Below are positions 298-19,824 of a stretch of DNA of 19,824 bases, in pieces. How positions within the stretch are numbered: the stretch's first letter is position 1; each line of letters opens with the position of its first letter. Both the position numbers and the translations under genes were made by a program. The notes under the pieces were generated by a model. The model saw only the letters and a list, made by a program, of their open reading frames with translations. It had not been told where the DNA came from and ran no database searches. The DNA is from Candidatus Thorarchaeota archaeon (GTDB lineage: Archaea > Asgardarchaeota > Thorarchaeia > Thorarchaeales > Thorarchaeaceae): positions 1 through 19,824 of the forward strand of contig PRDI01000101.1 in the NCBI GenBank assembly GCA_003345595.1, given 5' to 3'.

Positions 298-359
298 TGC
301 ACTGGAAACACACTCCAGTTGCGCCGCGCCTCAACGCCCACCTCTGTGTTTCCAGTGCA
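298..359. repeat. Perfect 15-bp inverted repeat (hairpin) between convergent genes
   Basis: TGCACTGGAAACACA (298-312) and TGTGTTTCCAGTGCA (345-359) are exact reverse complements with a 32-nt spacer. Confidence 0.9.
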
Positions 360-393
360 TGAACAATGAGCCAGTCAGCATGTGATGGATGGG

Positions 394-777
394 CTAAGCT
401 ATCGCGATTACATCTATCTCCATGCCCGCCTCTCTCGGGAGCCTTGCGACCTGTACCGTTGATCGGGCCGGGGGGTTCTTGGGGAAGTGCTTTGCATACT
501 CTGTATTCATCTCGGCGAAGTCATCCATGTTTCTTAAGAAGACAGTCGTCTTCACGACCTTCTCCATGGAGGAGCCCGCCGCCTCAAGTACAGCCTTGAG
601 GTTCCCAAGTATCTGCTTGGTTTGTTCTGTAATGGAACCTGCCACCACTTGACCTGTCGCGGGATTAATCGCTATCTGACCGGAGCAAAACACTAGGCCT
701 TTGGCCTTGATGGCTTGAGAGTACGGGCCAATGGCCTTTGGCGACTTCTCGGTTGTTATCACTTCTCGAGTACTCAT
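394..777 (-). CDS. ridA: RidA/YjgF/UK114 family reactive intermediate (enamine/imine) deaminase
   Basis: Motifs PKAIGPYSQA, CSGQIA, VVKTTVFL, PARSTVQV (catalytic Arg) and MEIDVIA. The ATG at 777 (MSTREVIT) is preferred over the track start at 789. Confidence 0.93.
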   Translation of the reverse strand: MSTREVITTEKSPKAIGPYSQAIKAKGLVFCSGQIAINPATGQVVAGSITEQTKQILGNLKAVLEAAGSSMEKVVKTTVFLRNMDDFAEMNTEYAKHFPKNPPARSTVQVARLPREAGMEIDVIAIA

Positions 778-852
778 TTTGCATCGCACTGGCTTTGAGG
801 CAGCACAGTCATTAATGTAATGGTGCCCTGACGTTGTCTTTGCCGGGAGAGC

Positions 853-1839: not shown

Positions 1840-1930
1840 CTCCGACAAATGGGGGCACAGGGGGTGCTTCGATGCCTAGTTAAAGAAAGCGGTGAGGCTT
1901 GCTTAGAAGTCCTGCACTTGTTGCTGGTGA

Positions 1931-4063
<2,133 letters not shown>

Positions 4064-4187
4064 CAGAGTCGATTTCATCTGTATTTGTGAAGGCTAACGG
4101 CTACTATGAATACTTGCAGTGTTGGCAGAAAGGAAATTGGTAGATACGATTAGTTTTATTTCCCGCAGATAACCCGCCACCTTCTCC

Positions 4188-5669
4188 ATGGCGACTGCAT
4201 ACAAGTGGCGCGCTCTCTCCGTCACTTCCCTCGGCTCACTTCTTTCAATTCTAGATGGGACGATTTTCATTATTGCCTTGCCGAGCATCATGAAAGGGCT
4301 GGATGCAGATCTTCTGACCATTACTTGGATTATCATGGGGTACATGCTCATCATGACACTCTTGGTGCCAACCTTTGGTCGTATCGCCGACATGGTTGGG
4401 CGTAAGAAGCTGTACATAGGTGGTTTCATTCTCTTTACTGTTTCATCCTTGTTTTGCGGTACGGCTGTGTCAGGGTTTCAGCTCCTGATCTTCCGAATGA
4501 TTCAGGCCATCGGCGGGTCTCTGCTAGTGGCGAACAGCGCCGCGATTGTCACGGATGCATTTCCCAAGGAGGAATTGGGGACCGCGATGGGGATCAACAG
4601 CATGATCTTCGGCGTGGGGGCTGCGATCGGTCCTGTTCTAGGCGGCTTGCTCCTCCAATTTGGCTGGCGCTTCATTTTCTTCATCAACATCCCGACGGGC
4701 GCGATTGGCACCATATGGGGAGCAGTCCAACTCAAGGAATTGGTGAAATTCCCGAAAAAGCGGAAGTTCGACTGGATTGGCACCGTCCTATTCACTATCG
4801 GCATTTCGGGATTACTGGTCGGGCTGTCATTTGGAGGTTTTGTCGGGTGGTTCAGCCCGATGATTATAGTCGTGATTCCAGTCGGAGCGGTTTGTTTCTT
4901 CCTTTTTGCAGAAGTGGAAAGGAGAGCCGAGTTTCCCATGATGGATTTGCGCTTGTTCAAAGCTTCGCGGTTGGCCTATGGATTTGGCGCCGCGCTGCTA
5001 AATGCAATCGCCCGAGGAGCGGTCATCTTCCTCCTTACGTTCTTCCTGCAAATCATCTTGGAGCTGGACCCCATCACGGCGGCGATCTACTTGACTCCCT
5101 TTGCTGTTGCACTGACCATTGGGGCGCCGGTTAGTGGCAGGCTTGCCGACAGGTACGGGACACGGGAGTTGTCGACGATTGGCTTGCTTATCTCAGCAAT
5201 TGGCTTGCTGGGCATGATGTTTGTTTCCATCGACACCTCGTTTCTGGAGCTGGTCTTGTGGATGAGCCTCATGGGTCTTGGCTCGGGGCTATTCTTCTCT
5301 CCCAACGCCAAGGTGATAATGGAGGCCGTACCTCCTCTCAAACGTGGCATTGCCACTGGTGTGCGGTCGATGTTGTTCAACGCGGGACAGGTCGTTAGCT
5401 TGGGGTTGGCCTTGGCAATCCTGTCCGAGGCGATATCGCTCAACGCATTGACGAATCTGTTCCTTGGATTGCAGGTGGGATCTGAAGGCGTGGAAATCGC
5501 TGAATTCATCATTGGGATCAGATTTGTGTTCACGATTTCATTTGCCGCGACTTTGCTTGCGGCGTTCATTTCGTCCCGCAAAGGTGTCCCGCCGCAATGG
5601 GAGAACAACGCTGAGGCGATTCCCAAGGGAGAAGCAGCGAACGTTCCGGCCGGAGAACATTCCCTCTGA
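4188..5669 (+). CDS. MFS drug:H+ antiporter, DHA2 (EmrB/QacA) family
   Basis: Strongly hydrophobic throughout, with motif D1 (LDGTIFIIALPSI), motif A (GRIADMVGRKK), motif B (FRMIQAIGG), motif C (GAAIGPVLGG), WRFIFFINIP, FDWIG and a second motif A (GRLADRYG). Confidence 0.93.
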   Translation: MATAYKWRALSVTSLGSLLSILDGTIFIIALPSIMKGLDADLLTITWIIMGYMLIMTLLVPTFGRIADMVGRKKLYIGGFILFTVSSLFCGTAVSGFQLLIFRMIQAIGGSLLVANSAAIVTDAFPKEELGTAMGINSMIFGVGAAIGPVLGGLLLQFGWRFIFFINIPTGAIGTIWGAVQLKELVKFPKKRKFDWIGTVLFTIGISGLLVGLSFGGFVGWFSPMIIVVIPVGAVCFFLFAEVERRAEFPMMDLRLFKASRLAYGFGAALLNAIARGAVIFLLTFFLQIILELDPITAAIYLTPFAVALTIGAPVSGRLADRYGTRELSTIGLLISAIGLLGMMFVSIDTSFLELVLWMSLMGLGSGLFFSPNAKVIMEAVPPLKRGIATGVRSMLFNAGQVVSLGLALAILSEAISLNALTNLFLGLQVGSEGVEIAEFIIGIRFVFTISFAATLLAAFISSRKGVPPQWENNAEAIPKGEAANVPAGEHSL

Positions 5670-5783
5670 TTCAAAGGATATCGAATACAGTGTCGCAACA
5701 GTACCAACTCGAAAGGGTGAGGCAGACATATTGCCATTCCTCAAGTTTCTTGTCCATTGCAGTCGGTTCTCTCTCCTTAGTGA

Positions 5784-5975
5784 CGGACCAGAGAAGAGCT
5801 TGAACACATCGAAATGGGATTGGGTGGACGTGTTTCCTCCAGCATGAACAAGAACACCAAGTATGTTGTTGCAGGGCTAAGTGCGGGTTCCAAGCTGGGC
5901 AAGGCAGAAGATCTCGGTGTCGACGTGGTATCGGAAGCGGAATTCGCCGAAATGCCGGCAAGAACAGGGAGCTAG
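5784..5975 (+). pseudogene. Relic of a LigA C-terminal BRCT domain (ligA 3' fragment)
   Basis: Manual translation gives [63 protein letters not shown]. It aligns without gaps to the LigA C-terminus in this window (33/57 identical by hand count). In-frame TAG-TGA stops precede it at 5778-5783. It is absent from the ORF track. Confidence 0.85.
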
Positions 5976-6290
5976 CAGCGAGCCACGAATCCTCGAGTGC
6001 CTTCTAGTCTGCTGGACAATCTCTTCAGGGCTCTCCTCATCACGTTTTGCGGGCGTGTCCTCTCCAAGGCCTTTGAATCTGCAGTTAAACGACGTAGACA
6101 GTTGGTCATCACACTGTTTCTGTCGAAGCGCCAAAAGCTTTATGTCAATTGTTCCTATCCTTCTCAGCCGACGGCTCGTGCATCACTTGATTACGTTACA
6201 TCTTTGGTAAAGCCCGCTAGTGGGCGATTTGGGCTTTGACTTCTTTGTTCTAATGATTCGGCACAAGCTCGTATTGCAGGAGGATCTGAA

Positions 6291-7742
6291 ATGAGAGAAA
6301 AGGGACTGAAACGTGTGAGAACAGCGTCAGCAGTGATAGCTGCATTGCTCTTTCTGGGCGCGTTCTACGCGTTGACAACTAGTCCGGTGGCAGCATCAGT
6401 TGAAACCGAGATAGTCGTCGACGTTGGGAACATAACCGATCTTATCTGGTCATCAAGCGGAACCAGGATAGCGTATGTGAAGTGTCCTGATGGTCAGCAA
6501 TGGGGCGGACTCTGGGTGGGGGACTGGGATGGTCATGAAGTCACCAATGTGCAGTTGCTGTACACAGAAGTTGACGGGACTAGACTAGAAGACTGGCAAG
6601 GAAGCTGGATCCTTTTCATGATACGACATGAGAATGGTCTTCCAAGCGAATACTACGGCCGCGGGGAACTCTGGAAGATCCGAGATGATGGAACCCAGCT
6701 TACTCAGATTACCTTTACGTATACAAACGGGATAAGAACAGAATGGTGGAACCCCGCATACACAAACATTGGCACTGCAAACTGGGGGCGCTTTATTCCC
6801 GGAACTGGTTTCGTGTACTTCTCTGCCCATGATGGCAACGGGTGGTGGAAGGCTTACACATGCAATGCTGACGGTACTGATGACTGGAATTTGATCAGTG
6901 GGAACACGTTTTCATTCACTATCGGTATGTCGCCCACAGGCAACAAGCTCGTGTGGGGTACGAGCTGGTACTGGAATCAGCCCACAACGCTCATGGCAAG
7001 CAACGTCGACGGGACGGAAAGGATAACCATCAGACAGTTTCCATTCAAGACCTATCCTTTGGTGTTGGCAGATGGAAACACAGTCGTGTACAGCAGGCCA
7101 GACGGTAACATCGGCGCGATTCAAATAGATGGGACCGCTGATCGGGTGGTGATCGATGACGAATACGCCAATTACTGGGCGAACTACGATCCTGTTGACG
7201 GGCAGTCGTTTCTAATGAGCAGCAACCGCGATCCGGACGGCAATGTTCACATTTTCAGCGTTGGAGTTAGCGGCACCGAAGTTTTCCAGCTCACAGACGG
7301 TCCATACAATGATGACAGCCCAATCTATTCTCCCAACGGATACTGTGTCCTGTACAGGAGACTTCCTGTCGGGTCCGATACATACACATACGAGTTAGTC
7401 ATCAGATGGATTGCCAAACAGATCGAAATCGACATCAAACCAGGTAGTGAATGCAACCCCATCAACCTCGGATCCAGAGGCAAGACAGCAGTTGCTGTAC
7501 TAACCACAAGCAACTTCGACGCCTCAACAGTCAATCCGGTCACGGTAGTATTCGCTCAAGCCGTTGCACTGCGGTGGAATCTTGAAGATGTTGATGGTGA
7601 CGGCGACCTCGATCTTGTTCTACACTTCAGTACACAAAGTCTTGAGCTTGCCATTGATAGCACTGAAGGAATCCTGACTGGATTCACGTTCGGCTGGGAG
7701 CTTATCGAAGGCAGAGACTCAGTCAGAATAGTCCCGCCCTAG
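6291..7742 (+). CDS. Secreted TolB-like (PD40/WD40-like) beta-propeller protein with a C-terminal DIKPG-type domain carrying a DxDGDG Ca-binding motif
   Basis: AGGAGG RBS at 6278-6283 and a signal peptide (basic N-region, hydrophobic core, VAA|S). Repeats WSSSGTRIAY, MSPTGNKLVW, YSPNGYCVLY and (I/C)xxDGT..QLT. The C-terminal domain reads IDIKPGS..NPIN...EDVDGDGDLDLVLHF. Confidence 0.8.
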   Translation: MREKGLKRVRTASAVIAALLFLGAFYALTTSPVAASVETEIVVDVGNITDLIWSSSGTRIAYVKCPDGQQWGGLWVGDWDGHEVTNVQLLYTEVDGTRLEDWQGSWILFMIRHENGLPSEYYGRGELWKIRDDGTQLTQITFTYTNGIRTEWWNPAYTNIGTANWGRFIPGTGFVYFSAHDGNGWWKAYTCNADGTDDWNLISGNTFSFTIGMSPTGNKLVWGTSWYWNQPTTLMASNVDGTERITIRQFPFKTYPLVLADGNTVVYSRPDGNIGAIQIDGTADRVVIDDEYANYWANYDPVDGQSFLMSSNRDPDGNVHIFSVGVSGTEVFQLTDGPYNDDSPIYSPNGYCVLYRRLPVGSDTYTYELVIRWIAKQIEIDIKPGSECNPINLGSRGKTAVAVLTTSNFDASTVNPVTVVFAQAVALRWNLEDVDGDGDLDLVLHFSTQSLELAIDSTEGILTGFTFGWELIEGRDSVRIVPP

Positions 7743-7791
7743 GGTTCATGAGAAACACACTGAGGTCTGGAAACCGATCTGTGTCTGTGGT

Positions 7792-7818
7792 GAGGGGCCA
7801 TGCGCTCCTCCCGTTTTT
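7792..7818 (+). terminator. Possible hairpin plus T-tract terminator after the propeller gene
   Basis: GAGGGGC-catgc-GCTCCTC stem (one G-U pair) followed by CCGTTTTT, about 50 nt after the stop codon. Confidence 0.4.
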
Positions 7819-8050
7819 CTCAATTGCGGATTGCCGGTGCGCTCCATGGCGTCTGCGAATGTCTTTTGCCGTGTTCATTAGAACCCATCCCTCCACCCCA
7901 CAGCCAGTGAGAGGATGACTGACAGTAAGGTCGAATCAGACGAGACCCCGAGCGAAAACCGGATTGTTTAATTCGATAGAAACGCTATCGCACGCGTCTT
8001 TGCTGATCCGAATCTCTGAGCAGCTAGTAGGCAATGCGGGGTCGAGGTCA

Positions 8051-10456
8051 ATGAATGGTAGACATGCCTTATTCATCGTGGTCTTCCTGTGTCTCACGGT
8101 GCAGTGCATACTGATACTGCCGGGTTCTCTCGGATGCTCTTCGGGTCTTTCTTATCTCGAGGACGACAGTGAACCGCAAGCCAAGCAGACTCTGTCATCG
8201 TCATGGCTGTTTGGATGGTCCTTCAGGAAGTCACACACCATAGAAGGTTCTACGGGTGCTGGCCCCGATTACCAGATCAGAATAGTCGCTCATTACGGTT
8301 CAGGAAATGATTCCGGCGCTGATGTATATCTCGACCACAAAAGCCAGGCTGATTTCGATGACATTCGTTTCACGGACGAGGATGGTCTAACGCTACTGCA
8401 ATATTGGATGGAGGAAGCGGCAGTCTCCGATCAAGCAGTGTTTTGGGTAAGAATAGGTGACAATCTGAATTTCACTGTGCACATCTACGTGTACTATGGC
8501 AACTATGTGTGTTCATCGATCAGTAACGGTTTTGCGACACTCATCTTCTTCGAAGACTTCGAGTCGGGCGTTCTGAGTCCAGCAAGGTGGGAAGATCCCG
8601 GTGACTGGCAGATTGTTGAAACAAACGTCAAACACGGGTCATACGCGGCATACTGTGTTGCGATGGCGCCCGAACTTACTCTATGGTGTAATCTGACTTC
8701 CAAACACCTTAACTACGGATTCATGCTTCATGTTTGGGCCAGATTTGGAGGTCTTTCAGGGTCCGCAGGTTACCCTGAGCTGTTCAGAGACTCTGATGGA
8801 GAACAGGTATACTCTGTAATGGTCTACTTCGGGCAGTACTGCTATGACCACGTCGGATCAAATCCCACACCTTGGCCAGCTAACAACACGATCTCATCAA
8901 ACACGTACTATAGAACGGAACTCGGGTTCGACTTCCAGAACGATAGACAACGATGCTGGAAATCGGGCAGCTACATGGGCGAAATAGATCTCAAAGATAT
9001 CTTCGGGGGCTCGGTCACTGAAATCATCTATTATGGTCCGGCGTCAGGATACCATTCTGGAGAAGATGTGTGGCTTGACGATTGCTACATCAGAAAATGG
9101 GTTCCTGATGAACCTGTACACGCCGCCTGGGGCATCGAAGAGATCGGCTCAGCCCCAGCGGACATGCTTAGATGGCATCATGACTGTTCGAATACAACCG
9201 GATGGGTCGTGGACGTCAAAGCATCGGAATCGAATCAGTTTGACCTGGGAATATTTGAGGTCCAGGATAACGTTTCAATCGTCTCTGACGGAGTTGGCAT
9301 TTACTCGAATTCAATACCTTATCATTCTGGTTACTTCCATGGCGCCACGTTCACATACACCCTTACCGCTGCGATCCTCGCAGGTTATGGGCTTGCTTTT
9401 CGGGCGCAGGTGAACCACACAGGATCGTCTAACAGGATGGGGGGCGTCACAGTGGCACTCTATGATGAGAACAAGAGTCTCGCGTACTTTGTAGGCACTC
9501 AAGACATGTGGTACGGCTCACATGTGGTGACGATTCTGGGCTATAAGGACGAAGACGGAAGGCGACTCAACATCACTGATCGAGATGGCCCTCTTGTAGT
9601 TGGCCTGCGGATATGGCAGGATGAAACAGATGGCTGCATCTATGCCAATGACACTCTTTCTATCCATTCATTGGCCACAAAAGGGACCTATGTACCCGAG
9701 AGATGGATTCGCTATGTGGCGTTGACATTCTACAATGGTGAGGACAATCAGTACGAGAGTGAAAGAGTGGTGGACATCAGTCTCACTGGTCAAGCCGGCG
9801 TATTAGCGATATCTCACCCTGAAGACATTGAATACGAGGCTGGAACTACCGGTCACTCGATAGACTGGACACACTCCGTACCCTTGCCAGGTGCCTACGA
9901 GATACTGCGGAATGGAGAATCTGTTCGGTTTGAAGCTTGGGACGGATCTCGAATCAGTGTCCCGGTTGATGGTTTCGATCCTGGAGTCTACAACTTCACT
10001 AACGTGATCCGCTACAATATGACAGAAATCGTGAGCGACACTGTCATTGTCACAGTTGTTGACACGACCCCACCCGTGATTAATCACCCGGTGGACATCC
10101 GCATGAATGAGACAGACACAGGGCTGTCGATTGTGTGGACCCCCTCTGACCTGTATCCTGCCAGCTGGGAAGTCAGGCTGAATGGGACTGTGGTTGCATC
10201 AGGAGCCTGGAACTCGACCGGAGAGGACGTTGTCGTTTCTCTCAATGGCCTCAACCCCGGAACGTACGTGTACACTATTACCGTTGCAGACATGAGCGGC
10301 AACCTGGAGGACGATATGGTTGCCGTGAGAGTAGAGAGAGTTCCAGATTGGTGGGAACTCTTCGGGCCATTCGGTTCTGTGACTATGACTATCACGATAG
10401 GATCCTTGGCTGTGATGGTGATTTTCGGAGCGCTGATTTGTCGGACGAGGAAGTAG
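8051..10456 (+). CDS. Membrane-anchored cell-surface protein: DUF2341 domain, beta-sandwich/lectin-like regions, two Ig-like repeats and a C-terminal TM helix
   Basis: GAGGT RBS before ATG 8051 and a hydrophobic signal segment. DUF2341 signature DFDDIRFT.EDG.TLL.YW.E...FWVRI...IYVYYGN. Two repeats of HP.DI...G.TG.SI.WT...Y/W.I..NG....AW. Ends in a TM segment and RTRK tail. Many NxS/T sequons. Confidence 0.85.
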   Translation: MNGRHALFIVVFLCLTVQCILILPGSLGCSSGLSYLEDDSEPQAKQTLSSSWLFGWSFRKSHTIEGSTGAGPDYQIRIVAHYGSGNDSGADVYLDHKSQADFDDIRFTDEDGLTLLQYWMEEAAVSDQAVFWVRIGDNLNFTVHIYVYYGNYVCSSISNGFATLIFFEDFESGVLSPARWEDPGDWQIVETNVKHGSYAAYCVAMAPELTLWCNLTSKHLNYGFMLHVWARFGGLSGSAGYPELFRDSDGEQVYSVMVYFGQYCYDHVGSNPTPWPANNTISSNTYYRTELGFDFQNDRQRCWKSGSYMGEIDLKDIFGGSVTEIIYYGPASGYHSGEDVWLDDCYIRKWVPDEPVHAAWGIEEIGSAPADMLRWHHDCSNTTGWVVDVKASESNQFDLGIFEVQDNVSIVSDGVGIYSNSIPYHSGYFHGATFTYTLTAAILAGYGLAFRAQVNHTGSSNRMGGVTVALYDENKSLAYFVGTQDMWYGSHVVTILGYKDEDGRRLNITDRDGPLVVGLRIWQDETDGCIYANDTLSIHSLATKGTYVPERWIRYVALTFYNGEDNQYESERVVDISLTGQAGVLAISHPEDIEYEAGTTGHSIDWTHSVPLPGAYEILRNGESVRFEAWDGSRISVPVDGFDPGVYNFTNVIRYNMTEIVSDTVIVTVVDTTPPVINHPVDIRMNETDTGLSIVWTPSDLYPASWEVRLNGTVVASGAWNSTGEDVVVSLNGLNPGTYVYTITVADMSGNLEDDMVAVRVERVPDWWELFGPFGSVTMTITIGSLAVMVIFGALICRTRK

Positions 10457-10571
10457 GTATTGACAGCAAGCAGGGCTTTCTCCTAGTAGGCCGTCTGACA
10501 GGCATTTGGAGTCTGGACCACTCATCGCGGTTGATGTCCATGAAACGAGAGTAGTCATGAGGAAATAGAGT

Positions 10572-11855
10572 CTACTGGTCTTGATCGAAACCTGCCTCGG
10601 CGTTTTTTGTTTTCCAATAGGCACTATATTCGGGATCTAGGTCATCGATAATGGGGCTTCTGGCGACAAGATTCTCAAGCAGGCTTTCGTGTTTGCGAAT
10701 CAGAGCATCCATCTTCCGGACGTCAGTCGTCCGCGAATGCGAACGATATGCCTCTTGTTGAAGTGCTACAACCTCCGGGAATCTCATACCCTGTGGTCCA
10801 TACCTCACTGCAAGAGCACGATTGGCCTTCTCTCTTCGCCACCAGTACGACCTGTCTGAGTACTTGAATCCACCAACATCAAAGCCCGAATAGACATGCG
10901 GTTTCTCGAAGTCGAAGGGCCAGTAGACGCTAATACATGGGCTAGACGAACCAGTGAACCAGTGAGTGCATTCTCCTCCAATCTCCGATATTTGGCTGCC
11001 CGTGGTGGATGAACCACCATTCTGGTTGGAATGTTGGCACACTGGAGTAACGTCTTGCTTCCATGGAGTCCAACCATCTGGATGGTTCCTGAGGATTGAG
11101 GCAATCTGAAAGAAGTCGATTTTTCCTTCCGTGTCGAGAAGCGATTTGGTGGAGCAGTTGAGTCTGTCATCGCAGTGAGTGATGAAGCGGAGGGTTTCGT
11201 TCCCATATGCTGTTGCGAAATCGAATTCCTCCTTGCTCTGACAGAAACCGCTGGCTATGGCATGTTCAATGAGGTCACCTGAGGCAAGGTCCCAATCCGA
11301 ATGGATAGTGTACCCATTGGATATGGCACGCACTGTCTTCACTCTCTGTGCAACCCAGCGTCTGTCTGAGGTTTCAAGCACCCAAGCCTCGTTCTTGTCT
11401 GCTATCAGAAAGCTGTTGTGGTACTTGTTCACGCCTCCCAGCTCACAGACTCCTCCTTGACCGTGCTCCTCCAAGAGCGACACGATTACGTCAAGGGCTC
11501 TTCGGGCAGTATACCCGCGCTCTAATGCGAGTCGGAGCAGGTCCATTCCGAGAAGGCCGGTTTCTGGCACCTGTTCGTTCGAGTACACTGCCTCATTGCC
11601 GATAGCTACGCCATGCTCATTGGCACCCATCTCTCCACCCCACAGCCAGCTAGGCGATGATAGGAATACGGCATATGTCACCCTTTCTTGTGGAATAGAG
11701 ACGTATGTGCACTTCAGCATGTCGGCTTTGTCATAGTCTTTCCTAGGAAAGTACCTCACAAGCTGAGCCTCATTCGGAGGCCTGTCGCTGTTCTTTCCGA
11801 ACAGGGTTCTTCCGTCGGTCGTTGAATTGCCCAGTGCAACAAGTGTGTCACACAA
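10572..11855 (-). CDS. Secernin-like peptidase C69 family Ntn-hydrolase
   Basis: TTG start gives (M)CDTLVA...LFGKNSDRP.NEAQ with an N-terminal nucleophile Cys. Further motifs are W.WGGEMGANEHGVAIGNEAV, LLGMDLLRLALER, GQGG and YHNSFLIAD..EAWVLET. Confidence 0.92.
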   Translation of the reverse strand: MCDTLVALGNSTTDGRTLFGKNSDRPPNEAQLVRYFPRKDYDKADMLKCTYVSIPQERVTYAVFLSSPSWLWGGEMGANEHGVAIGNEAVYSNEQVPETGLLGMDLLRLALERGYTARRALDVIVSLLEEHGQGGVCELGGVNKYHNSFLIADKNEAWVLETSDRRWVAQRVKTVRAISNGYTIHSDWDLASGDLIEHAIASGFCQSKEEFDFATAYGNETLRFITHCDDRLNCSTKSLLDTEGKIDFFQIASILRNHPDGWTPWKQDVTPVCQHSNQNGGSSTTGSQISEIGGECTHWFTGSSSPCISVYWPFDFEKPHVYSGFDVGGFKYSDRSYWWRREKANRALAVRYGPQGMRFPEVVALQQEAYRSHSRTTDVRKMDALIRKHESLLENLVARSPIIDDLDPEYSAYWKTKNAEAGFDQDQ

Positions 11856-11897
11856 ATGACGTCACTCCATGAGAGCTAGCGGCTAACCTTCGCAATA

Positions 11898-12650
11898 CTA
11901 GCTCTTGTTGCCGTACTCGCGAAGCCACTCATCCTCGAAGTCTACTTCCATGTCGGCAGCTTCAGCCAGTTCTTCTCCAGTCATGCCATCGATGAGCATC
12001 TTTGTCCTGAGCATGATGTACCTGTCCTTCTTCATGAGACCGGCCACAAACTCCATAGTCTTGGGCATCAATTCTGCAGAGGGGAACACCCTGTTGGCTA
12101 ATCCTATCTCAAGTGCCTCATCAGCAGAAACGAGGCGAGAAGTGAGCAGTAGGTCTTTCGTTCGGCTAGAACCAACGAGATGAATCAGGTTTGACGCAGC
12201 TCCTGCGCCAGGGAATATGGCCAACTCCACTTCAGGAAACCGAAAACCGGCTGTGTCAGAGCAGAGCCGAAAGTCACAGGCTGAGGCAACCATCGCTCCA
12301 AAGCCAACAGCGTACCCATTCACGGCTGCAATAGTGAAGCAGCTCTTGGCCTGCCTTATCAAGCGAATAGTCTTCTCAAGCAGCTTGAAGAAATCGTGGC
12401 GATCTTGACCCTTCACACCTCTTACCATATCAAGGTCAAACCCTGCCGAGAAAGCCTTCTCGCCCTCACCAGTGATGACGATCGCCATGATGGCTGGATC
12501 ATTAGTCAGGTGTCCAACTTGTTCACTGAACGATTCGAACATGCGTCTAGTTACAGAATTGAGCTTGTCCGGTCTCGAAATCGTAATCGTCGCAACAGGT
12601 TCGGTTCTTTCCACTTTGATTTCTCCGAGTGGGGAGACATCTTTCCTCAT
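11898..12650 (-). CDS. Enoyl-CoA hydratase/isomerase (crotonase) family protein
   Basis: Motifs ITISRPDKLNS, AFSAGFDL, IAAVNGYAVG.G, ACDFR, FPEV.LAIFPG.G and VSADEAL.IGL. ATG 12650 (MRKDVSP) avoids overlap with iscU. Confidence 0.9.
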   Translation of the reverse strand: MRKDVSPLGEIKVERTEPVATITISRPDKLNSVTRRMFESFSEQVGHLTNDPAIMAIVITGEGEKAFSAGFDLDMVRGVKGQDRHDFFKLLEKTIRLIRQAKSCFTIAAVNGYAVGFGAMVASACDFRLCSDTAGFRFPEVELAIFPGAGAASNLIHLVGSSRTKDLLLTSRLVSADEALEIGLANRVFPSAELMPKTMEFVAGLMKKDRYIMLRTKMLIDGMTGEELAEAADMEVDFEDEWLREYGNKS

Positions 12651-12705
12651 GATGTCACGTCCTGCGTGCCGCGAGTGTTGTTGATGAAAAGCAGCTAATA
12701 AACTT

Positions 12706-13134
12706 TCAAGGCTCTTGAGCGTTTGCCGGCTTATCTCCCTTGGCCCTGCGTTCATAGTCTTCGATAGCTTTCTGCAGCGCTTCAGCTGCTAAGTTACTGC
12801 AGTGCATCTTATGTGGAGGAAGACCGTCGAGCGCGTCAGCCACCATCTTCCTAGTTATCGTCTTGGCTTCTTCAATTGTCTTTCCCATTGCCATTTGAGT
12901 GGTCATTGAAGAGGTGGCAATAGCAGCGACACAACCGAATGTTTCCACTTTGATGTCTTCGATGATGCCGTTTTTGACCTTGATGAAGAGCCTCAGCATG
13001 TCTCCGCAAACAGGGTTTCCAACTGTCCCAACGCCGTCTGGATTCTCTATCCTACCCATATTCTGCGGCTTTCTGAACTGCTCAATCACCTTGTCCGTAT
13101 ACGTGTGGAATTCCTCCGATGAACCCCGATTCAC
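12706..13134 (-). CDS. iscU: Fe-S cluster assembly scaffold IscU/NifU-N
   Basis: YTDKVIEQF..P.N.G, GNPVCGD, FGC.AAIA.SS and LPPHKMHCSNLA. All three Cys, the Asp and the His are present. Confidence 0.95.
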   Translation of the reverse strand: MNRGSSEEFHTYTDKVIEQFRKPQNMGRIENPDGVGTVGNPVCGDMLRLFIKVKNGIIEDIKVETFGCVAAIATSSMTTQMAMGKTIEEAKTITRKMVADALDGLPPHKMHCSNLAAEALQKAIEDYERRAKGDKPANAQEP

Positions 13135-13190
13135 ACTCTGTATAACGATTGCTGAAGGGGCGCACTTTCTCCTTTCTCTGTGATGCTTGT

Positions 13191-14405
13191 CTACACCTCG
13201 TCCAGTTTCTCATCCTGATGCTCGTCTTCACTATTGCTTTCATATGCGAAGTACTCCCCTCTTCGGAGTGGACTAAACTCTCTAAGACGTTCCACTGTAG
13301 GGACGAGAGCTTGCACAAAAGCGTCAATCTCCTGTTTCGTGTTGAATCGAGAGAGAGAAACCCTGACTGATCCATGCGATATCTCCGGCGGAAGTCCTAT
13401 TGCTTTCAGCACGTGACTGCCTTGCAGAGTTTTCGATGAGCATGCCGATCCAGTCGATACTGCAAATCCTTCCATGTCAAGCTGGACCAGCATTGATTCA
13501 CCCTCGATCTGTTCGACAATCATGCTGTAGAGGTTAGGCAGCCGCTTCACAGGATGGCCTGTACTTCTAAGTTCTGTGAGTTGTCCTGCTAGCTTCTGCT
13601 CAAGATACTTCCTCAGAGCTAGGAGCTGTGCGGGCTCGTTTCCACCCCAGACCTCAACAGCCTTTCCGAAGCCTACTGCAGCCGGTATATCCGGCACACC
13701 GGGTCTGAGCCTCCGCTCCTCATCTCCGCCCTCCATGATCCTTTGGAGCCTCGTACCTTTCCTTATGTAGAGCGCACCTATGCCCTTCGGTCCGTGGATA
13801 TGATGGGCATCAAAGGTGATCATGTCAAGAGGCGTGGTCTTTGTGTCGATTGGTATCTTCAGGTAGCTCTGTGTGGCATCGGTGTGGAATAAGATGCCGC
13901 GTTGCGATGTTATCTTGGCAATCTCCTCGATGGGCTGAACGGTTCCTATCTCTCCGTTTGCATGCTGGATCGAGACCAGAATTGTGTCGCTCCTGATCCT
14001 CTTTGTGAGCTGAGCTATATCGACGAGACCGTACTGATCCACATCGAGCACGTCAACATCAAACCCCTCCTTCTCAAGTGCTTTGCACGTCTGAAGCACA
14101 GACATGACCTCTGTGGCGCATGTGATGACGTGCTTGCCCTTGTCAGAGTTGGCAAGAGCAGCACCTCTTATGGCCAGATTATTTGATTCAGTCTGGCCCG
14201 ATGTGAAGACGATAGTTAATGGTTCAGTATTAATGGACTGTGCCAAGATCTTCCTCGCGTTTTCAAGGCCTCTCATGGCAGTGACATCGCGGGAGTGACC
14301 CAGTTCCATTCCTGCGGTTCCGTAGTGCTCTCGCAGATATGGAAGCATGGCCTCTATGACCCTATCATCCACTCTTGTGGAGTTTGCATTATCAAGGTAG
14401 GCCAT
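13191..14405 (-). CDS. iscS: IscS/NifS-like type I cysteine desulfurase homolog lacking the PLP-binding Lys (probably desulfurase-inactive)
   Basis: Class V PLP fold motifs YLDN, FTSGQTESNN, EIGTVQP, FHTDATQ, HGPKGIGAL, STGSACSS and GSVRVSL. The canonical HK(I/F)xGPKG reads HHIHGPKG. ATG 14405 (MAYLDN) lies one nt after the regulator stop. Confidence 0.9.
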   Translation of the reverse strand: MAYLDNANSTRVDDRVIEAMLPYLREHYGTAGMELGHSRDVTAMRGLENARKILAQSINTEPLTIVFTSGQTESNNLAIRGAALANSDKGKHVITCATEVMSVLQTCKALEKEGFDVDVLDVDQYGLVDIAQLTKRIRSDTILVSIQHANGEIGTVQPIEEIAKITSQRGILFHTDATQSYLKIPIDTKTTPLDMITFDAHHIHGPKGIGALYIRKGTRLQRIMEGGDEERRLRPGVPDIPAAVGFGKAVEVWGGNEPAQLLALRKYLEQKLAGQLTELRSTGHPVKRLPNLYSMIVEQIEGESMLVQLDMEGFAVSTGSACSSKTLQGSHVLKAIGLPPEISHGSVRVSLSRFNTKQEIDAFVQALVPTVERLREFSPLRRGEYFAYESNSEDEHQDEKLDEV

Positions 14406-14406
14406 G

Positions 14407-14880
14407 TCATCGCCCGCCGTCCTTGCAGGCCCTGCATTCCTCCTCGACCTCGCCGCATCGCTCCTTATGGACGTCACACATGATTCCAGCGTCCCTAAGA
14501 CTCCTGATCAGTCTGTTGATCTCTTTCGTCATTATTTGGTAGATGTGCGCGTCGGTTTCTTTCTGGCTCCATGCTTTGAGTACAACGTCGACTGACTTCT
14601 CAATCTCGTGAAGGAAGGACTCTGGGATTTCTATCACGTCTCCACGGGCTCTCTTCTTCTTCTGTACTGTGTGGCCCTTCTTCTTCTTGTACTGTGTGAC
14701 AGCCGGCTCTGTGACGCCCAATATTCCAGCTATGTCCTTCTGCGGAACCTTCCTCTCGATCATAATGCGGGCCATCTCTCTGCGCAGAGACGGCAGTACG
14801 TACCAGACCTCGAGTTCCTGCGGCATCAGCCAAGTCCTTCGTTTCACCTGTTTCTTGTGTTGCTTCTCCGTTTCCGACAT
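14407..14880 (-). CDS. Archaeal XRE-type HTH transcriptional regulator (COG2522-like) with a Cys/His-rich C-terminus
   Basis: P.E..V.YVLPSLRR.MAR, HTH QKDIAGILGVTEPAVTQY and C-terminal C-x2-H-x3-C-x6-C-x2-C. Confidence 0.85.
   Translation of the reverse strand: MSETEKQHKKQVKRRTWLMPQELEVWYVLPSLRREMARIMIERKVPQKDIAGILGVTEPAVTQYKKKKGHTVQKKKRARGDVIEIPESFLHEIEKSVDVVLKAWSQKETDAHIYQIMTKEINRLIRSLRDAGIMCDVHKERCGEVEEECRACKDGGR
14653..14698 (-). repeat. Imperfect tandem duplication inside the regulator gene
   Basis: CTTCTTCTTC-TGTACTGTGTG (14653-14673) and CTTCTTCTTCTTGTACTGTGTG (14677-14698) are identical except for one indel. Confidence 0.85.
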
Positions 14881-14907
14881 GGATATTCACTCGAAGGAAT
14901 GTTCAGT

Positions 14908-14937
14908 TTACAATTGTGAAGACAATTGACTAATAAG
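14908..14937 (-). promoter_or_regulatory. TATA-like box and candidate operator CAATTG-N6-CAATTG upstream of regulator-iscS-iscU
   Basis: The minus strand reads CTTATTA-gt-CAATTG-tcttca-CAATTG-taaa. The palindromic hexamers at 14923-14928 and 14911-14916 lie between the TATA-like box and the expected transcription start. Confidence 0.55.
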
Positions 14938-15039
14938 GGTTGTCTTTCGGTGTCATTCGTAGGAACACTGACTGTCTTAGGTCAAAGGTTAAATCGGGTG
15001 TGTCACCGAGATGCCGTAGTTTCCTTCGGAGGAAGTCTG

Positions 15040-15435
15040 TTGTCAGTCTTTCAAGGTATTGAGCATGTCGGGCTTGTCTGCAAGGACACCACTGGCATGG
15101 CGAAGTGGTATGCCGAAGTCTTTGGATTGAAGGAAGTGTACAACAATAGAAAGACACCGCCGACTCTCTTCTATAAAGCTCCCAATGGAATGATGATTGA
15201 GTTCGTGCCCACTGGCGGCAAGGCCTCTCTTCCCTTTGATGAAAAGGACGAGGGTTGGCGACACATAGCAGTCAAGGTAGTCAACATTCAGTCTGCTATG
15301 GCCAAGCTAGACGAACGACATGTAGAATGGATTGGCGATCTCAAGGAGAGCCCACAGACTGGAGTGAAGGCACGATTCTTCAGAGACCCCGAAGGCAACA
15401 TCTTGCACATCATAGAAAGGTCCAGCCCGCTCTGA
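15040..15435 (+). CDS. VOC (glyoxalase/bleomycin resistance/dioxygenase) family protein
   Basis: GGAGG at 15028-15032 precedes TTG 15040. Motifs IEHVGL, WY.EVFG, MIEF, GWRHIA.KV.NI and FFRDPEGN. Confidence 0.9.
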   Translation: MSVFQGIEHVGLVCKDTTGMAKWYAEVFGLKEVYNNRKTPPTLFYKAPNGMMIEFVPTGGKASLPFDEKDEGWRHIAVKVVNIQSAMAKLDERHVEWIGDLKESPQTGVKARFFRDPEGNILHIIERSSPL

Positions 15436-15482
15436 CCTGCAGACCTTCTTCCCTCCGCGGTGTTCCCCACGAACGTCCCGTC

Positions 15483-16220
15483 TCACAAATCGTCAAGAAT
15501 AGCAGCGGACGTAGAGAATGCAATGTCGTGGCCGGGGATGATTGTTCTGGGGTTGAGTGACCTGATTCTCTCGAGGCTAGACAGGTAGGCTTGTTTGTCT
15601 TCAGCCGAACCCGGGCTTTTGCGTTTCCGATACTCATCTGCTGAGCTTACAGCGTCGCCCGCTATGACGGTGGACCCGGTCGGCGTTCTCACAACTACGC
15701 TGATACTCCCAGCTGTGTGACCGGGCGTAGTTACTATGCTCACATCCTCGGACACCTTGGTGTCGCCTGATATCGGCTGAATCTTCAATGTCTTGACGCA
15801 GGCTTCGAAGAATTCTGGCCACGAATGTAACAGGTCCGATGATTGGAGTTCCTTTTCATGAACCATGAGTTTCTTTCCTCGGAATAGGAAGTTGCTACCA
15901 GCATGATTTGCATGAAGATGTGTGTTTACGACAAGGTCGATGTCAGACGGTGTCAACTTCAGTTCCTTCAGTCTCTCGTTTAGCACTTGCTGTAAACCGA
16001 CCTCGGGAGCTCCTGGGTCAACGATTATTCTGTCTTCGCCCTCAATTAGTACAGTGTTGCAGGAACCCACCTTCAACCAAGAAGATCCGAATGATCTGTC
16101 AAGCAGACGATCAAGGTCATAGCTTGTCATTGCTGAATGCTCTCGAACAAGCACGGGATGACCACCCTTCAACCCATAGAATGTCGCAAACTCGTGTATG
16201 AGAATCCTGATTCGTGTCAA
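15483..16220 (-). CDS. Metallo-beta-lactamase fold hydrolase (HxHxNH variant)
   Basis: Motifs NTVLI, IIVDPG, VNTHLHANHAG, TPGHT.GS, AGDA and IPGHD. AAGGAG lies upstream of the TTG start. Confidence 0.88.
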   Translation of the reverse strand: MTRIRILIHEFATFYGLKGGHPVLVREHSAMTSYDLDRLLDRSFGSSWLKVGSCNTVLIEGEDRIIVDPGAPEVGLQQVLNERLKELKLTPSDIDLVVNTHLHANHAGSNFLFRGKKLMVHEKELQSSDLLHSWPEFFEACVKTLKIQPISGDTKVSEDVSIVTTPGHTAGSISVVVRTPTGSTVIAGDAVSSADEYRKRKSPGSAEDKQAYLSSLERIRSLNPRTIIPGHDIAFSTSAAILDDL

Positions 16221-16368
16221 GACTCATTCTCCTTAGAGGATATGCTCACAAATCGCATGCTCACATGCCGCCGTTCTGCATGAAGAAGAGCAAGTTCATC
16301 GGTTACCACTGCAATCGGCAACAGATAAATGCCCGGATGAGCGGTTGGTCCTTCAAGGTGGCGTAAGC

Positions 16369-17364
16369 ATGAAGGTCTTAGTCACGGGTGCAACTGGGTT
16401 TATTGGGCACAAGTTTGCTGAGCGTTTGGCGAGTGAGGGACACGAAGTTTTTGCCCTCGTTCGCAAGACTAGTGACAAAACGCGTATACCCGACGGTGTG
16501 CAGATCAGGGAAGGCGACATGCTGGACGAGCCGAGCCTGAAGGAGGCCGTCAAGGGGGTGCAGGCAGTAGTACACTTCGCTGCCTACTTTGACTTCTACC
16601 CCCGCGACAAGGGTTTGCTTTACAGGGTGAATATCGATGGCACACGGATGCTTGCAAACGCCTGCGTCGGCAAATCGGTCGAGAGGTTCATCTACTGCTC
16701 GAGTACAGAGGCCATCGGACCCGTTGCTCATCCACCGGCCAATGAAGAAAGTGAGCTCAGGCCGTCGTTTGATTACGGGCATGTGAAGGATCTTGCCGAG
16801 CAGGTCGTCAGACAGGTTACCAAAGACACAGGACTGCCACACATAATCTTGCGGCCCACGGGAGTTATGGGAGAAGGCGACTTCTATACTGCATACGAGG
16901 TCATTAAGGCCTTGAACGAGCGGGAGATTCCTGTTCTCCCTGGGGACGGCGAAAAGAGCATAATGTATACATACGTCGATGATGTCGTGGATGGCTTCGT
17001 GAAGGCGCTCACTTCGGGAAACGCACTGAACAACACAATAATACTCTGTCCCGATGTGGGCATCAAATACAAGGACTTGATAGAATTCTTCTGCACATGT
17101 CTTGGAGTAAAGCCTCCAAAGAGAAGAGTACCTACGACTCTCGCCATGCTGGGTATCGGCTTGCTCAGTCCAATGAAGAACCGAAAGAAGAACACATTCC
17201 TCTGGCACATGAAGACGGTTCGGAGCATGGATGAAGAACGCACGTACTCCAACGAGAAGGCAAAGCAACTGCTAGGTTGGACTCCCAAATACACGATGCA
17301 AGAAGGCATCAAGAGAGTCATAGACTGGTACTTCGCAAACGGACACCTTCAGAGGAAGGGATAG
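16369..17364 (+). CDS. NAD(P)-dependent epimerase/dehydratase (extended SDR; DFR/3beta-HSD-like)
   Basis: VLVTGATGFIG Rossmann motif, ALVR (NADP-type), GD, V.HFAA, VN.DGT, CSST, catalytic YGHVK, ILRP, YVDDV and KAK.LLGW.P. Confidence 0.92.
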   Translation: MKVLVTGATGFIGHKFAERLASEGHEVFALVRKTSDKTRIPDGVQIREGDMLDEPSLKEAVKGVQAVVHFAAYFDFYPRDKGLLYRVNIDGTRMLANACVGKSVERFIYCSSTEAIGPVAHPPANEESELRPSFDYGHVKDLAEQVVRQVTKDTGLPHIILRPTGVMGEGDFYTAYEVIKALNEREIPVLPGDGEKSIMYTYVDDVVDGFVKALTSGNALNNTIILCPDVGIKYKDLIEFFCTCLGVKPPKRRVPTTLAMLGIGLLSPMKNRKKNTFLWHMKTVRSMDEERTYSNEKAKQLLGWTPKYTMQEGIKRVIDWYFANGHLQRKG

Positions 17365-17368
17365 AGCC

Positions 17369-18964
17369 ATGGATCCGGTGCTTGGCTTCGCCCTGATAAT
17401 CTTCCCAATAGTCCTAGCACTCGTGATGCTCGTTTTCCTCCACAAAGCAGCAGACACAACAGGGGTGGTTGTGTGGCTCGTGACTGTGCTGATTGCCGTC
17501 TTCGCATTCCAGACTGATATCATGGTAGCACTGGTTTCCAGCGTCGCAGGTATTGTAAACTCGTTTCCGATCTCCCTCATGGTGGCAACCTCAATTCTGA
17601 TGATGACCTACATGCAAGAAACAGGAGCGCTTCAGAGACTGATCGTATTCTTCAAGACCCTCGGCGGAGGGAGTCGGCCGATGCAGATCATGATGATCAG
17701 TCTTGGTCTGGGTCTCTTTCTGGTGGGAATAGGAGCCACACCCGTTTCGATGTTGCCTCCGGTCATGCTGGCCTTGGGTTTCAGTCCACTTGTCGCCGTG
17801 GCATTGCCGGCAATAGGCTACGATCCTCTAACGACGTTCGCGCTCCTCGGAGTCCCGGCCGTTGTGTTCAGAGACACGTACTCCGCAGTTTCAGGCACTT
17901 CTGTGACTCTGTCCGAGGCTGGCGGCGTTTTTGCGCTTTATATGCCCGTCATAACGACGGGCATAGCGATCTCAATGCTCTGGATTGCAGGGGGTCGAAA
18001 GCTACTAGCTCAGAAGGAGGGACTTCTTCTCGCTGGCATTTGCGGCGTCACGGCGGGTTTCATTGCCATCGTGTGCAACACGGCATTCGTAAACCAGACC
18101 ACACTGACCGACGTGTTCGCGGGCGCCGCGGTGATGGCAGTGTTGTTTGCCTACAACAGAATAAGAAAGAGACCAATGATTGACAAGAGCGTACTCACGG
18201 AGAAGGACATTCAGGTCCAGCAGTCTTTGAGCTTGTCAAGAGCCAGCATACCATGGGTCATACTTGTTGTCCTGTGCCTTGTCACGAATCTCATTCCATC
18301 GGTCAAGGATTTGCTGTATAATCAGCTCGCCATGGGTATTGTCATCGATGGCTACCCACGCGCGATAAGCACACGTGTCCTGTGGCAGGCGTACACACTG
18401 ATGCTAGTTGCAACATTGGCGTCTATACCATTCCTCAAGAGAGACCGGGTGACTCTAAGGAATACACTCTCCAAGTTCTCCAAGAGAGCACCGAGACCGG
18501 TCCTTGCGGCTGCAATCTTCTTTGCGATGGCAGAAGTGATGAACTATAGCGGCTACTTCGTCAGTGTGGGTACATGGACATCCCCTGGCGACCCCAGCAA
18601 CAACATGATCTATCTCTTGGCCACGGCCACCTCGAGTACGTTGGGCATCGCCTACCCGCTCACAGCAGCCTTTCTTGGGCTCTTAGCCGGCTTTATCTCT
18701 GGTTCCGAAACCTCAGCGATTGCGATGTTCACGAAATACCACTATCAGGCGAGCACTCTGATCGGAGCCAACTCCTTAGTCGTTGCCGCTTCGAACGGGA
18801 TTGGAGGAGGACTCGCCAGTGTCTTGAGTCCAGCCAAGATCCAGAATGCCGCAGCAGTGATCGACCAGATCGGCATAGAAGGCCATGTTATTCGGTACGG
18901 TGTTGTTGTGGCAGTTCTCATGACTGCGGTCGTTGCAGTGATGACGATGTTTTGGGCATTCTGA
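17369..18964 (+). CDS. lctP: L-lactate permease (LctP) family transporter
   Basis: Polytopic hydrophobic protein with ETGA...I..F, LGFSPLVAV, F..LG.P, LG.LAGFISGSETS..AMF...Q and A.N.IGGGLAS.LSPAKI. It starts 4 nt after the SDR stop. Confidence 0.85.
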   Translation: MDPVLGFALIIFPIVLALVMLVFLHKAADTTGVVVWLVTVLIAVFAFQTDIMVALVSSVAGIVNSFPISLMVATSILMMTYMQETGALQRLIVFFKTLGGGSRPMQIMMISLGLGLFLVGIGATPVSMLPPVMLALGFSPLVAVALPAIGYDPLTTFALLGVPAVVFRDTYSAVSGTSVTLSEAGGVFALYMPVITTGIAISMLWIAGGRKLLAQKEGLLLAGICGVTAGFIAIVCNTAFVNQTTLTDVFAGAAVMAVLFAYNRIRKRPMIDKSVLTEKDIQVQQSLSLSRASIPWVILVVLCLVTNLIPSVKDLLYNQLAMGIVIDGYPRAISTRVLWQAYTLMLVATLASIPFLKRDRVTLRNTLSKFSKRAPRPVLAAAIFFAMAEVMNYSGYFVSVGTWTSPGDPSNNMIYLLATATSSTLGIAYPLTAAFLGLLAGFISGSETSAIAMFTKYHYQASTLIGANSLVVAASNGIGGGLASVLSPAKIQNAAAVIDQIGIEGHVIRYGVVVAVLMTAVVAVMTMFWAF

Positions 18965-19005
18965 ATGCCAGAAACGGATGGAATCTAGCGTTGAGGTGAC
19001 TTAGG

Positions 19006-19359
19006 TCAGGTCGAGGTGCCGATGTTTTGCGGGTAGGCTTGTGCCAACCGTGCCTTTCTCCGCCTCACGAATACAACCGCTACAACGACGACAAAGACAA
19101 CTAGGAATCCGACATAGGCCTCAGATGGAATCGCCGAACCAATGAACTCAACCACCAACCGACCGAGTGCGAGGACGATAATCGTTTCCACACAGTGACC
19201 AAGTAATGTCAAAGAGTCCGTGGCTGGGCGAAGCTTTGTTTCGATCCCACTTATTGTCATGTTGCCGCAGTAGCGGCAGAAGACCGTTCCGTCGAGTCTT
19301 ACTTCCTCTTGTGGGTAAGTGTATCTCCCGCCACAGTATTGGCATTCTGTTTCCGACAT
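19006..19359 (-). CDS. Small zinc-ribbon membrane protein (CxxC-x18-CxxC plus two hydrophobic segments)
   Basis: CQYCG...FCRYCG, then hydrophobic segments (TIIVLALG.LVV; AYVGFLVVFVVVVAVVFV) and a basic RRRKAR stretch. Confidence 0.7.
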   Translation of the reverse strand: MSETECQYCGGRYTYPQEEVRLDGTVFCRYCGNMTISGIETKLRPATDSLTLLGHCVETIIVLALGRLVVEFIGSAIPSEAYVGFLVVFVVVVAVVFVRRRKARLAQAYPQNIGTST

Positions 19360-19413
19360 GAGTCAGACCCGCGCCCTTCGACGAACACCCACTGAGAATC
19401 ACGCAACTGACGG

Positions 19414-19445
19414 TTTAAGGTTTCTGTTCCTCGGAACAGCTTAAG
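19414..19445. promoter_or_regulatory. Palindrome CTGTTCC-N2-GGAACAG between two TTAA-containing TATA-like boxes in a divergent intergenic region
   Basis: Perfect 7-bp inverted repeat at 19424-19439, flanked by TTTAAG (19414-19419) and CTTAAG (19440-19445). Confidence 0.5.
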
Positions 19446-19510
19446 AAGCGGAACGCGCACGTAGACGAGGCATCCCCCTTGCCAACAATCTGCGGGCAGA
19501 GGCGAAAGTG

Positions 19511-19824
19511 ATGAAGTGGGTGACTCGGAACAAACCTCATGTCGATCGCTGTGCATCCGCATGGCTCATCAAGAGATTCATCGATGAAGGCGCACGCTTC
19601 AGCTTCATCTCAAGAGACGATCCGATTCCCAAAGGTTCCGTTGCTTTCACGCTGCCAAACGCAGAGATAAGACCAGTTGAGGGAGCAAGGACAACCTATG
19701 ACGTTCTGCTAGAGAGATATGAGGTCGCAGACCCTGTCGCTATAAGAATAGGTATGCTTGTCCATGATTTCGAAGTTGACGCAGCTGAGGATCCAGACCG
19801 AGTCGCACACAAAGAAACACTGGG
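19511..19824 (+). CDS. Chromate-resistance ChrB C-terminal domain protein (stand-alone, ChrF-like), 3'-truncated by the window
   Basis: Manual translation: MKWVTRNKPHVDRCASAWLIKRFIDEGARFSF...TTYDVLLERYEVADP....IG.LVHDFE. WVTR..P.VDR.A.AWLI.RFID is the ChrB_C signature. The frame is open to the window end and is not in the ORF track. Confidence 0.88.
   Translation, partial: MKWVTRNKPHVDRCASAWLIKRFIDEGARFSFISRDDPIPKGSVAFTLPNAEIRPVEGARTTYDVLLERYEVADPVAIRIGMLVHDFEVDAAEDPDRVAHKETL

Follow-up and report, generated by a model that had tools for sequence, protein, structure and literature searches.

How does sulfur enter the iron-sulfur (Fe-S) clusters of anaerobic archaea without a desulfurase? The question is raised by an IscS homolog devoid of its catalytic lysine, encoded in a 19,824-nucleotide stretch of DNA from a Candidatus Thorarchaeota archaeon (contig PRDI01000101.1, positions 1 to 19,824 of the forward strand, hereafter the window). 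The gene (13191..14405, minus strand) codes for a 404-aa homolog of type-I cysteine desulfurases, with a class-V aminotransferase fold, which begins with MAYLDN and in which the lysine that binds pyridoxal 5'-phosphate (PLP) is absent; we refer to it as the Thor-type IscS, and to its set of orthologs as the Thor clade. It is flanked by the genes of a helix-turn-helix (HTH) regulator and of an IscU scaffold protein. Judging from its sequences, the Thor clade lost the lysine and most of the cofactor contacts long ago, yet it is strictly conserved, and its members are probably non-catalytic partners of IscU.

The loss of the lysine is indeed clear from the alignments. The minus strand reads ...ITFDAHHIHGPKG at 13820-13780, and the second CAT of this segment (13802-13800) is codon 202 counted from the MAYLDN start. 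The resulting His202 is aligned by phmmer to D199 of Archaeoglobus fulgidus IscS (4eb5) and to the lysine of its D199K variant (4r5f); it also stands opposite the lysine of the 9wep desulfurase (phmmer) and opposite K206 of Escherichia coli IscS (MAFFT). The Schiff-base lysine that marks a type-I cysteine desulfurase (E. coli K206) is missing from this protein, as the initial annotation, made from the letters of the window, had already reported. The further alterations of the cofactor pocket that it had listed were likewise borne out by the MAFFT alignment, which adds that of S203: on E. coli IscS numbering, H104, which stacks on the cofactor ring, is replaced by V100, N155 by G151, S203 by D199, T243 by V237, and A11/T12 by N/S. 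One of the listed changes has no diagnostic value, namely the proline of RPGV in place of S241, as some lysine-bearing relatives have P, A or G there. T76, D180, Q183, H205, R354 and C328 (C322 here) are unchanged. The activity of E. coli IscS depends on each of H104, D180, Q183, K206 and C328 (PMC9978102). The aspartate at S203 places a negative charge in the phosphate cup, which should disfavour the cofactor phosphate. The Thor clade is predicted to be unable to form the internal aldimine, and it is without the stacking histidine and several other cofactor contacts.

Apart from this site, the protein looks like a complete member of its family. The open reading frame (ORF) is of full length, as first described, with homology to PF00266 over residues 3-363 (237 bits, 3e-70), and identity to lysine-bearing IscS and NifS proteins reaches 42-50%. 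It falls under the equivalog cut-offs of NCBIfam, scoring 415 vs 530.75 for TIGR03402 (NifS), 354 vs 643 for TIGR02006 (IscS) and 360 vs 548 bits for NF010611. A. fulgidus IscS, which the initial annotation had chosen as a model, is its top match among solved structures (345 bits). The mobile-loop Cys322 is intact in STGSACSS (codon 13442-13440), and the Cys loop, STGSACSSKTLQ.SHVL, is identical to that of A. fulgidus IscS at 16 of 17 positions. The linked IscU (12706..13134, minus strand; PF01592, 151 bits) was expected to have all its ligands and does: C37, D39, C63, H105, C106 and the LPPxK motif are all kept, by comparison with E. coli IscU. The start of this gene is uncertain, being either the GTG at 13134 or the GTG at 13089, the latter called on a sister contig, so that the protein has 127-142 aa. 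Regulator, Thor-type IscS and IscU lie head-to-tail on the minus strand and are followed by a crotonase-family gene; one nucleotide separates the regulator stop codon from the ATG of IscS, and 56 nt separate the IscS stop from the IscU start. The order regulator-IscS-IscU is conserved in all nine relatives that have the Thor-type IscS and in one metagenome contig, with IscU directly 3' of IscS in every locus with sufficient flank.

Conservation of the Thor clade was evaluated by a search of 5.8 billion proteins, with residue counts taken from 59 full-length members. The orthologs form a tight set (61-93% identity, followed by a gap down to 53% or less) that is reduced to one representative at 50% identity. 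Those with a name are nearly all metagenome-assembled genomes (MAGs) of Thorarchaeota, in line with the Asgard origin that had been guessed from the sequence. The lysine position reads H in 37, L in 12, R in 8 and V in 2 of the 59, and K in none. His202 therefore has no specific role, since the position varies among H, L, R and V within the clade; the description of the protein as a "His variant" was abandoned, and a histidine acting as a functional substitute for the lysine is ruled out on the same ground. At the other pocket positions, H104 is replaced by T or V (His in 10%), N155 by G in 81%, T243 by V or I, and S203 by Asp in nearly all members. Some residues that are invariant in lysine-bearing enzymes have been replaced by others now fixed in the clade (N35 to T, G44 to D and N290 to T, each 100%; M151 to Q, 98%), and the clade has a 2-residue insert, E-L. 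Little or no variation is seen in STGSACSS. A C-terminal tail rich in His and acidic residues, ..HHHD[LIV]PxDDW, with a terminal Trp, closes the protein in about 80% of the clade (e.g. P0050, P0061) and is absent from other IscS; it is missing in the genus of the window, where EDEHQDEKLDEV stands instead (window 13194-13230).

Selection on the locus was estimated against a 93%-identical metagenome contig, with ratios of nonsynonymous to synonymous substitution rates (dN/dS) of 0.069 for the Thor-type IscS, 0.061 for IscU and 0.073 for the regulator. Strong purifying selection thus acts on the protein, with a dN/dS of 0.07 and an intact frame, but leaves the former lysine position to vary freely. 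The conservation of a lysine-to-histidine change under purifying selection, which had been put forward as a check, thus stood in part: selection and the complete absence of lysine were confirmed, and the histidine itself is not conserved. These data also dispose of the least probable explanation of the locus, an assembly error or a recently decaying pseudogene, which we regard as next to impossible: 59 full-length lysine-less orthologs come from independent assemblies, dN/dS is 0.07, the reading frame is open and the start is conserved.

Inactive IscS proteins have been described in archaea, and the novelty of the present one was overrated at first, as lysine-less IscS is published for both A. 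fulgidus and Methanosarcina acetivorans IscS1 (PMC8918507, PMC7585200). A. fulgidus IscS has no desulfurase activity and holds pyridoxamine 5'-phosphate (PMP) non-covalently, as does its D199K variant; its Cys helps to ligate the [2Fe-2S] cluster on IscU, for which sulfide has been proposed as the source of sulfur (PMC8918507). The same inactivity and Cys donation to the IscU cluster are reported elsewhere (PMC7585200). The IscS2-IscU pair of A. fulgidus (4EB5, 4EB7, 4HVK; D199K 4R5F) resembles the present one in its lysine-less type-I fold, its adjacent IscU and its intact, almost identical Cys loop. It differs in its pocket: the A. fulgidus protein, which binds PMP, has Asp at the lysine position, keeps H104, N155 and S203 and has Ser for T243, whereas the Thor clade has H, L, R or V at the lysine position and has lost H104, N155, S203 and T243. 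M. acetivorans IscS1 is also lysine-less and possibly similar to the A. fulgidus protein (PMC7585200). Its IscS1-IscU1 pair (MA0808/MA0807) shares with the Thor-type pair the loss of the lysine, an intact Cys loop, the position beside IscU and a 2-residue insert in the GNPSS-H loop; unlike the Thor-type IscS, its group has Thr at the lysine position, Asp at H104 and the loop STGSACFS, and it forms a clade of its own (support 99). The MIS system (MisS-MisU; Garcia et al., as reviewed in PMC13066941), which is able to use sulfide, is comparable in that an anaerobic archaeon has a two-gene pair of IscS-like and IscU-like proteins and no HscAB, Fdx or IscA with it. However, MisS is described as a cysteine desulfurase, whereas the Thor-type IscS, which cannot be a PLP-lysine enzyme, sits in a regulator-crotonase unit.

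Within the IscS family, the 149 closest representatives of clusters at 50% identity comprise 133 with the lysine and 16 without it; the latter read T, L, Q, D, S, G, A, R, P or M at this position, and almost all retain the Cys. Catalysis thus seems to have been lost repeatedly in the family while a scaffold role was kept. On a tree of 82 rows (IQ-TREE), which requires at least eight changes of the lysine state, the Thor clade has full support and a long stem (0.57). It groups (SH-aLRT 89) with a Hodarchaeales group in which the lysine is replaced by Leu and with lysine-bearing Heimdall proteins, and all three carry two extra residues in the GNPSS-H loop. Separate clades are formed by the M. 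acetivorans IscS1-like group (K to T, H104 to D) and by the A. fulgidus-like group (D, S, A or P), so that the Thor clade sits apart from the latter on the best tree. This topology and the insert favour a loss of the lysine in the Thor clade that was independent of that in the Asp-type clade, but an approximately unbiased (AU) test did not reject a tree in which the two clades are united (p 0.217).

The rest of the genome (2.73 Mb, 83% complete) was compared with 18 genomes of the same family (19 with its own), among them three of the same genus (G001-G003, 85-93% complete). It encodes a second lysine-less module on contig C115 (3215-5800, minus strand; L002, L009), an A. fulgidus-type cassette made up of tusA (5588-5800), dsrE (5195-5536), an Asp-type IscS with SSNDIYGPKG at the former lysine site (4002-5201; 448 bits to A. 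fulgidus 4eb5) and an IscU of 268 aa with a C-terminal extension of about 130 aa (3215-4021). The C115 copy, a different gene from the Thor-type IscS, is the genome's true A. fulgidus-type ortholog. In contrast to that cassette, the Thor-type module has no TusA or DsrE alongside: tblastn searches with the TusA and DsrE of this genome found neither within 6-8 kb of the module in nine loci. The Asp-type IscS is present in nearly every genome of the family, and the Thor-type in 10 of 19.

An intact desulfurase or a SufB scaffold elsewhere in the genome had been envisaged from the start. The former exists, as a SufS-family gene on contig C75 with both Lys and Cys intact; no SufE, SufU or SufBC partner for it was found in this genome. 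SufB/D (PF01458) was not found in the genome or in the three of the same genus (83-93% complete), and it is present in 10 of the 18 same-family genomes and was not found in 8. The Thor-type IscS occurs in 6 of 9 genomes without SufB vs 4 of 10 with it; as the genomes are related and the trend is weak, we do not take it as evidence of a link between SufB absence and this gene. A lysine-bearing type-I desulfurase was not found in the four genomes of the genus searched, and a homolog of this kind occurs in only 5 of the 18 relatives. We propose, as a tentative possibility, that every Fe-S scaffold in the genus is an IscU served by an inactive IscS, and that the Thor-type copy arose separately, with its pocket lost, no adjacent sulfur carriers and a new regulator with a Cys/His motif.

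Other desulfurase homologs were noted in these genomes. On contig C49 (22264-23478, plus strand; L004), a SufS-family homolog (231 bits, below the cut-off) seems to be without the PLP lysine, with LSGNVGFMGSPG where SufS has S.HK..GP.G, and retains its Cys in LLCAHP. The lysine-bearing type-I homologs of the relatives (G009, G011, G014, G015; L049, L053-L055) are mostly long frames of 749-782 aa, which carry AGHKLYAPKG and an unusual loop, SAGAACHA, and look like fusion proteins.

From a mechanistic standpoint, the best-supported reading remains a non-catalytic role as co-scaffold or sulfur carrier, in line with the initial proposal, and we consider it probable, on grounds of sequence and analogy, that the Thor-type IscS is a partner of IscU comparable to the A. 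fulgidus co-scaffold, in a clade that has lost its lysine throughout, and most of the other cofactor contacts. The basis of this reading is the clade-wide loss of the lysine, the eroded pocket, the purifying selection, the conserved synteny and the conserved operator (see below). Such a protein would no longer perform PLP-dependent cysteine desulfuration. We infer that it would form with IscU an (IscS-IscU)2 complex, as in A. fulgidus, where Cys322 would assist in retaining or assembling the nascent [2Fe-2S] cluster of IscU, as a ligand and/or a persulfide carrier, and that the source of sulfur would be free sulfide or a persulfide handed over by another protein, the candidates in this genome being the intact SufS-like enzyme (C75) and the TusA/DsrE carriers (C115). 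The pair would share a transcript with the HTH regulator that precedes it, which would control its own gene and may respond to metal, cluster or redox state through its Cys3His/Cys4-type motif. Several points weigh against this reading. D180, T76, H205, Q/H183 and R354 are retained, which is compatible with non-covalent binding of PLP, PMP or another ligand, and A. fulgidus IscS does hold PMP (PMC8918507). No TusA or DsrE accompanies any of the nine Thor-type loci within 6-8 kb. The protein is dispensable, since only 10 of 19 family genomes carry it. The AU test (p 0.217) leaves a single loss of the lysine, common to the Thor and Asp-type clades, compatible with the data.

Other roles can be imagined for the same protein. 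It may act mainly as a persulfide relay, with Cys322 taking sulfane sulfur from the SufS-like enzyme (C75) or from TusA/DsrE and handing it to IscU or other acceptors, rather than serving as a cluster ligand in a sulfide-fed scaffold. We hold this to be rather unlikely, although the Cys loop is invariant in the clade, the genome encodes an intact SufS-family protein, for which a SufE, SufU or SufBC partner was not found, and TusA and DsrE are encoded elsewhere in it: none of these donors is near the Thor-type module in nine loci, the sole characterised inactive IscS, that of A. fulgidus, is a ligand donor (PMC8918507), and relay and ligand roles are in any case compatible with each other. A repurposed pocket, which together with the His-rich acidic tail would bind a metal (e.g. 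Fe2+) or a small ligand and make the protein an iron donor or gate for IscU, would account for the residues newly fixed in the clade (N35 to T, G44 to D, N290 to T, M151 to Q and S203 to D), for the E-L insert and for the ..HHHD[LIV]PxDDW ending of about 80% of its members. But the protein of the window is without the HHH...DDW tail and ends in EDEHQDEKLDEV, and the lysine position itself is unconstrained; this purely inferential possibility appears improbable. Residual cofactor chemistry, in which the Thor-type IscS would still be a PLP or PMP enzyme, with the GPKG lysine, H201 or H204 as the base, or would catalyse a different reaction, is in our opinion very improbable. D180, T76, H205 and R354 are retained and E. 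coli K206A still holds some PLP, but the E. coli enzyme is inactive as K206A, as H104Q and as Q183E (PMC9978102), and the GPKG lysine is also present in A. fulgidus IscS, which shows no activity, not even in its D199K form (PMC8918507). The Thor-type IscS, moreover, has lost N155, T243 and the His that stacks on the ring, and has Asp for S203.

The control of the Thor-type pair probably involves a regulator (14407..14880, minus strand, 157 aa) that has no family match in Pfam or NCBIfam and no Rrf2 domain at E<=0.01 in either. Its homologs number 205, those with a source name being almost all from Thorarchaeota, and the family is confined to Thorarchaeia and close kin. They share a C-terminal motif, C135-x2-H138-x3-C142-x6-C149-x2-C152, whose residues are conserved at 1.00, 1.00, 0.88, 0.99 and 0.99, respectively. 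Its neighbours in the ESM Atlas, by protein-language-model features, are archaeal HTH_3 clusters; the AlphaFold2 model is all-helical (pLDDT 75.5). A fold search against PDB (Foldseek) gave nothing at E<0.9, and a profile search against PDB sequences returned designed helical repeats only. The regulator recalls IscR, also an HTH protein with a Cys/His ligand set (in IscR, three Cys and one His), encoded by the first gene before iscS-iscU and with an operator at its own promoter. It differs from IscR in that it is not an Rrf2 protein, has HTH_3 neighbours and is not dedicated to IscS-IscU, and cluster binding is only putative. In the genus of the window, the regulator has a Lys-rich insert after the HTH, KKKKGHTVQKKK (14653-14698, residues ~64-76), at a place where the alignment of most homologs is gapped over some six residues.

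A TATA-like box, CTTATTAG (14930..14937, minus strand), is the putative promoter of regulator, IscS and IscU. The candidate operator TTCACAATTGTAAA (14907..14920, minus strand) lies 9 nt downstream of it and is an imperfect copy of a family palindrome, TTCACWATWGTGAA. Upstream regions in nearly all genomes of the family have the TATA-like CTTATTAG, or CTTATAT at the equivalent place in orthologous regions, and then the palindrome 10-20 nt further on; the core AC[ACT]AT[AT]GT is found 3' of the TATA-like box before the regulator in nearly all family loci, with or without IscS-IscU. Overlap of the operator with the predicted transcription start suggests autorepression. Exact sites of the operator pattern number 2 in the genome vs 0.24 expected, and a search of the genome for a regulon recovered no exact match beyond the regulator promoter other than contig C28 1393-1406. 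This site, a perfect palindrome, TTCACTATAGTGAA, precedes by 6 nt an ORF of 80 aa (1145-1387, minus strand), which has no assigned function and contains a CC pair.

Synteny gives the regulator a wider setting. The initial annotation had described a three-gene module with a Cys-rich regulator of its own, a view we reject: the regulator is family-wide, is single-copy in 17 of 18 same-family genomes, and lies directly before the crotonase gene, with the same operator, in genomes without IscS-IscU. Judged by this synteny, it is not an Fe-S-specific factor; the Thor-type pair is probably under its control. Its conserved downstream partner across the family is the crotonase/enoyl-CoA hydratase family gene (11898..12755, minus strand, directly after IscU; its true start is probably downstream of 12755), which matches NCBIfam enoyl-CoA hydratase models at 1e-43 to 1e-29, all under cut-off, and which lies 0.1-2.5 kb past IscU in genomes that have the pair. 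The conserved neighbourhood, which also surrounds the regulator in genomes without the pair, includes lactate permease, NAD-epimerase, crotonase, amino-acid kinase and RidA-like genes (L065, L066, L072-L084). The IscS-IscU pair is thus an insert in, or a segment lost from, a regulator-crotonase unit, since the regulator adjoins the crotonase gene where the pair is absent. On a proxy tree of regulator and Asp-type IscS, which is poorly resolved, gain and loss of the pair amount to at least four changes, of which well-supported branches force one.

The Thor-type IscS extends the published phenomenon of inactive IscS to a new, more degenerate lineage with a different gene context; it is not a new kind of system. 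Found in about half of one archaeal family alongside an A. fulgidus-type cassette, the Thor clade offers a clean natural experiment, with a cofactor site far more eroded than that of the A. fulgidus protein and no adjacent sulfur carriers. Through it, it can be tested whether the Cys loop at the IscU interface is the only role that remains, and whether the cofactor matters. The regulator, though not Fe-S-specific, offers with its candidate operator a way to study how Fe-S genes are regulated in Asgard archaea. If all scaffolds of the genus are indeed served by an inactive IscS, the pocket and the His-rich tail of the Thor-type protein may have been repurposed for iron delivery, and a cysteine-independent Fe-S assembly, fed by sulfide or by a relay, would be the only route in an Asgard lineage.

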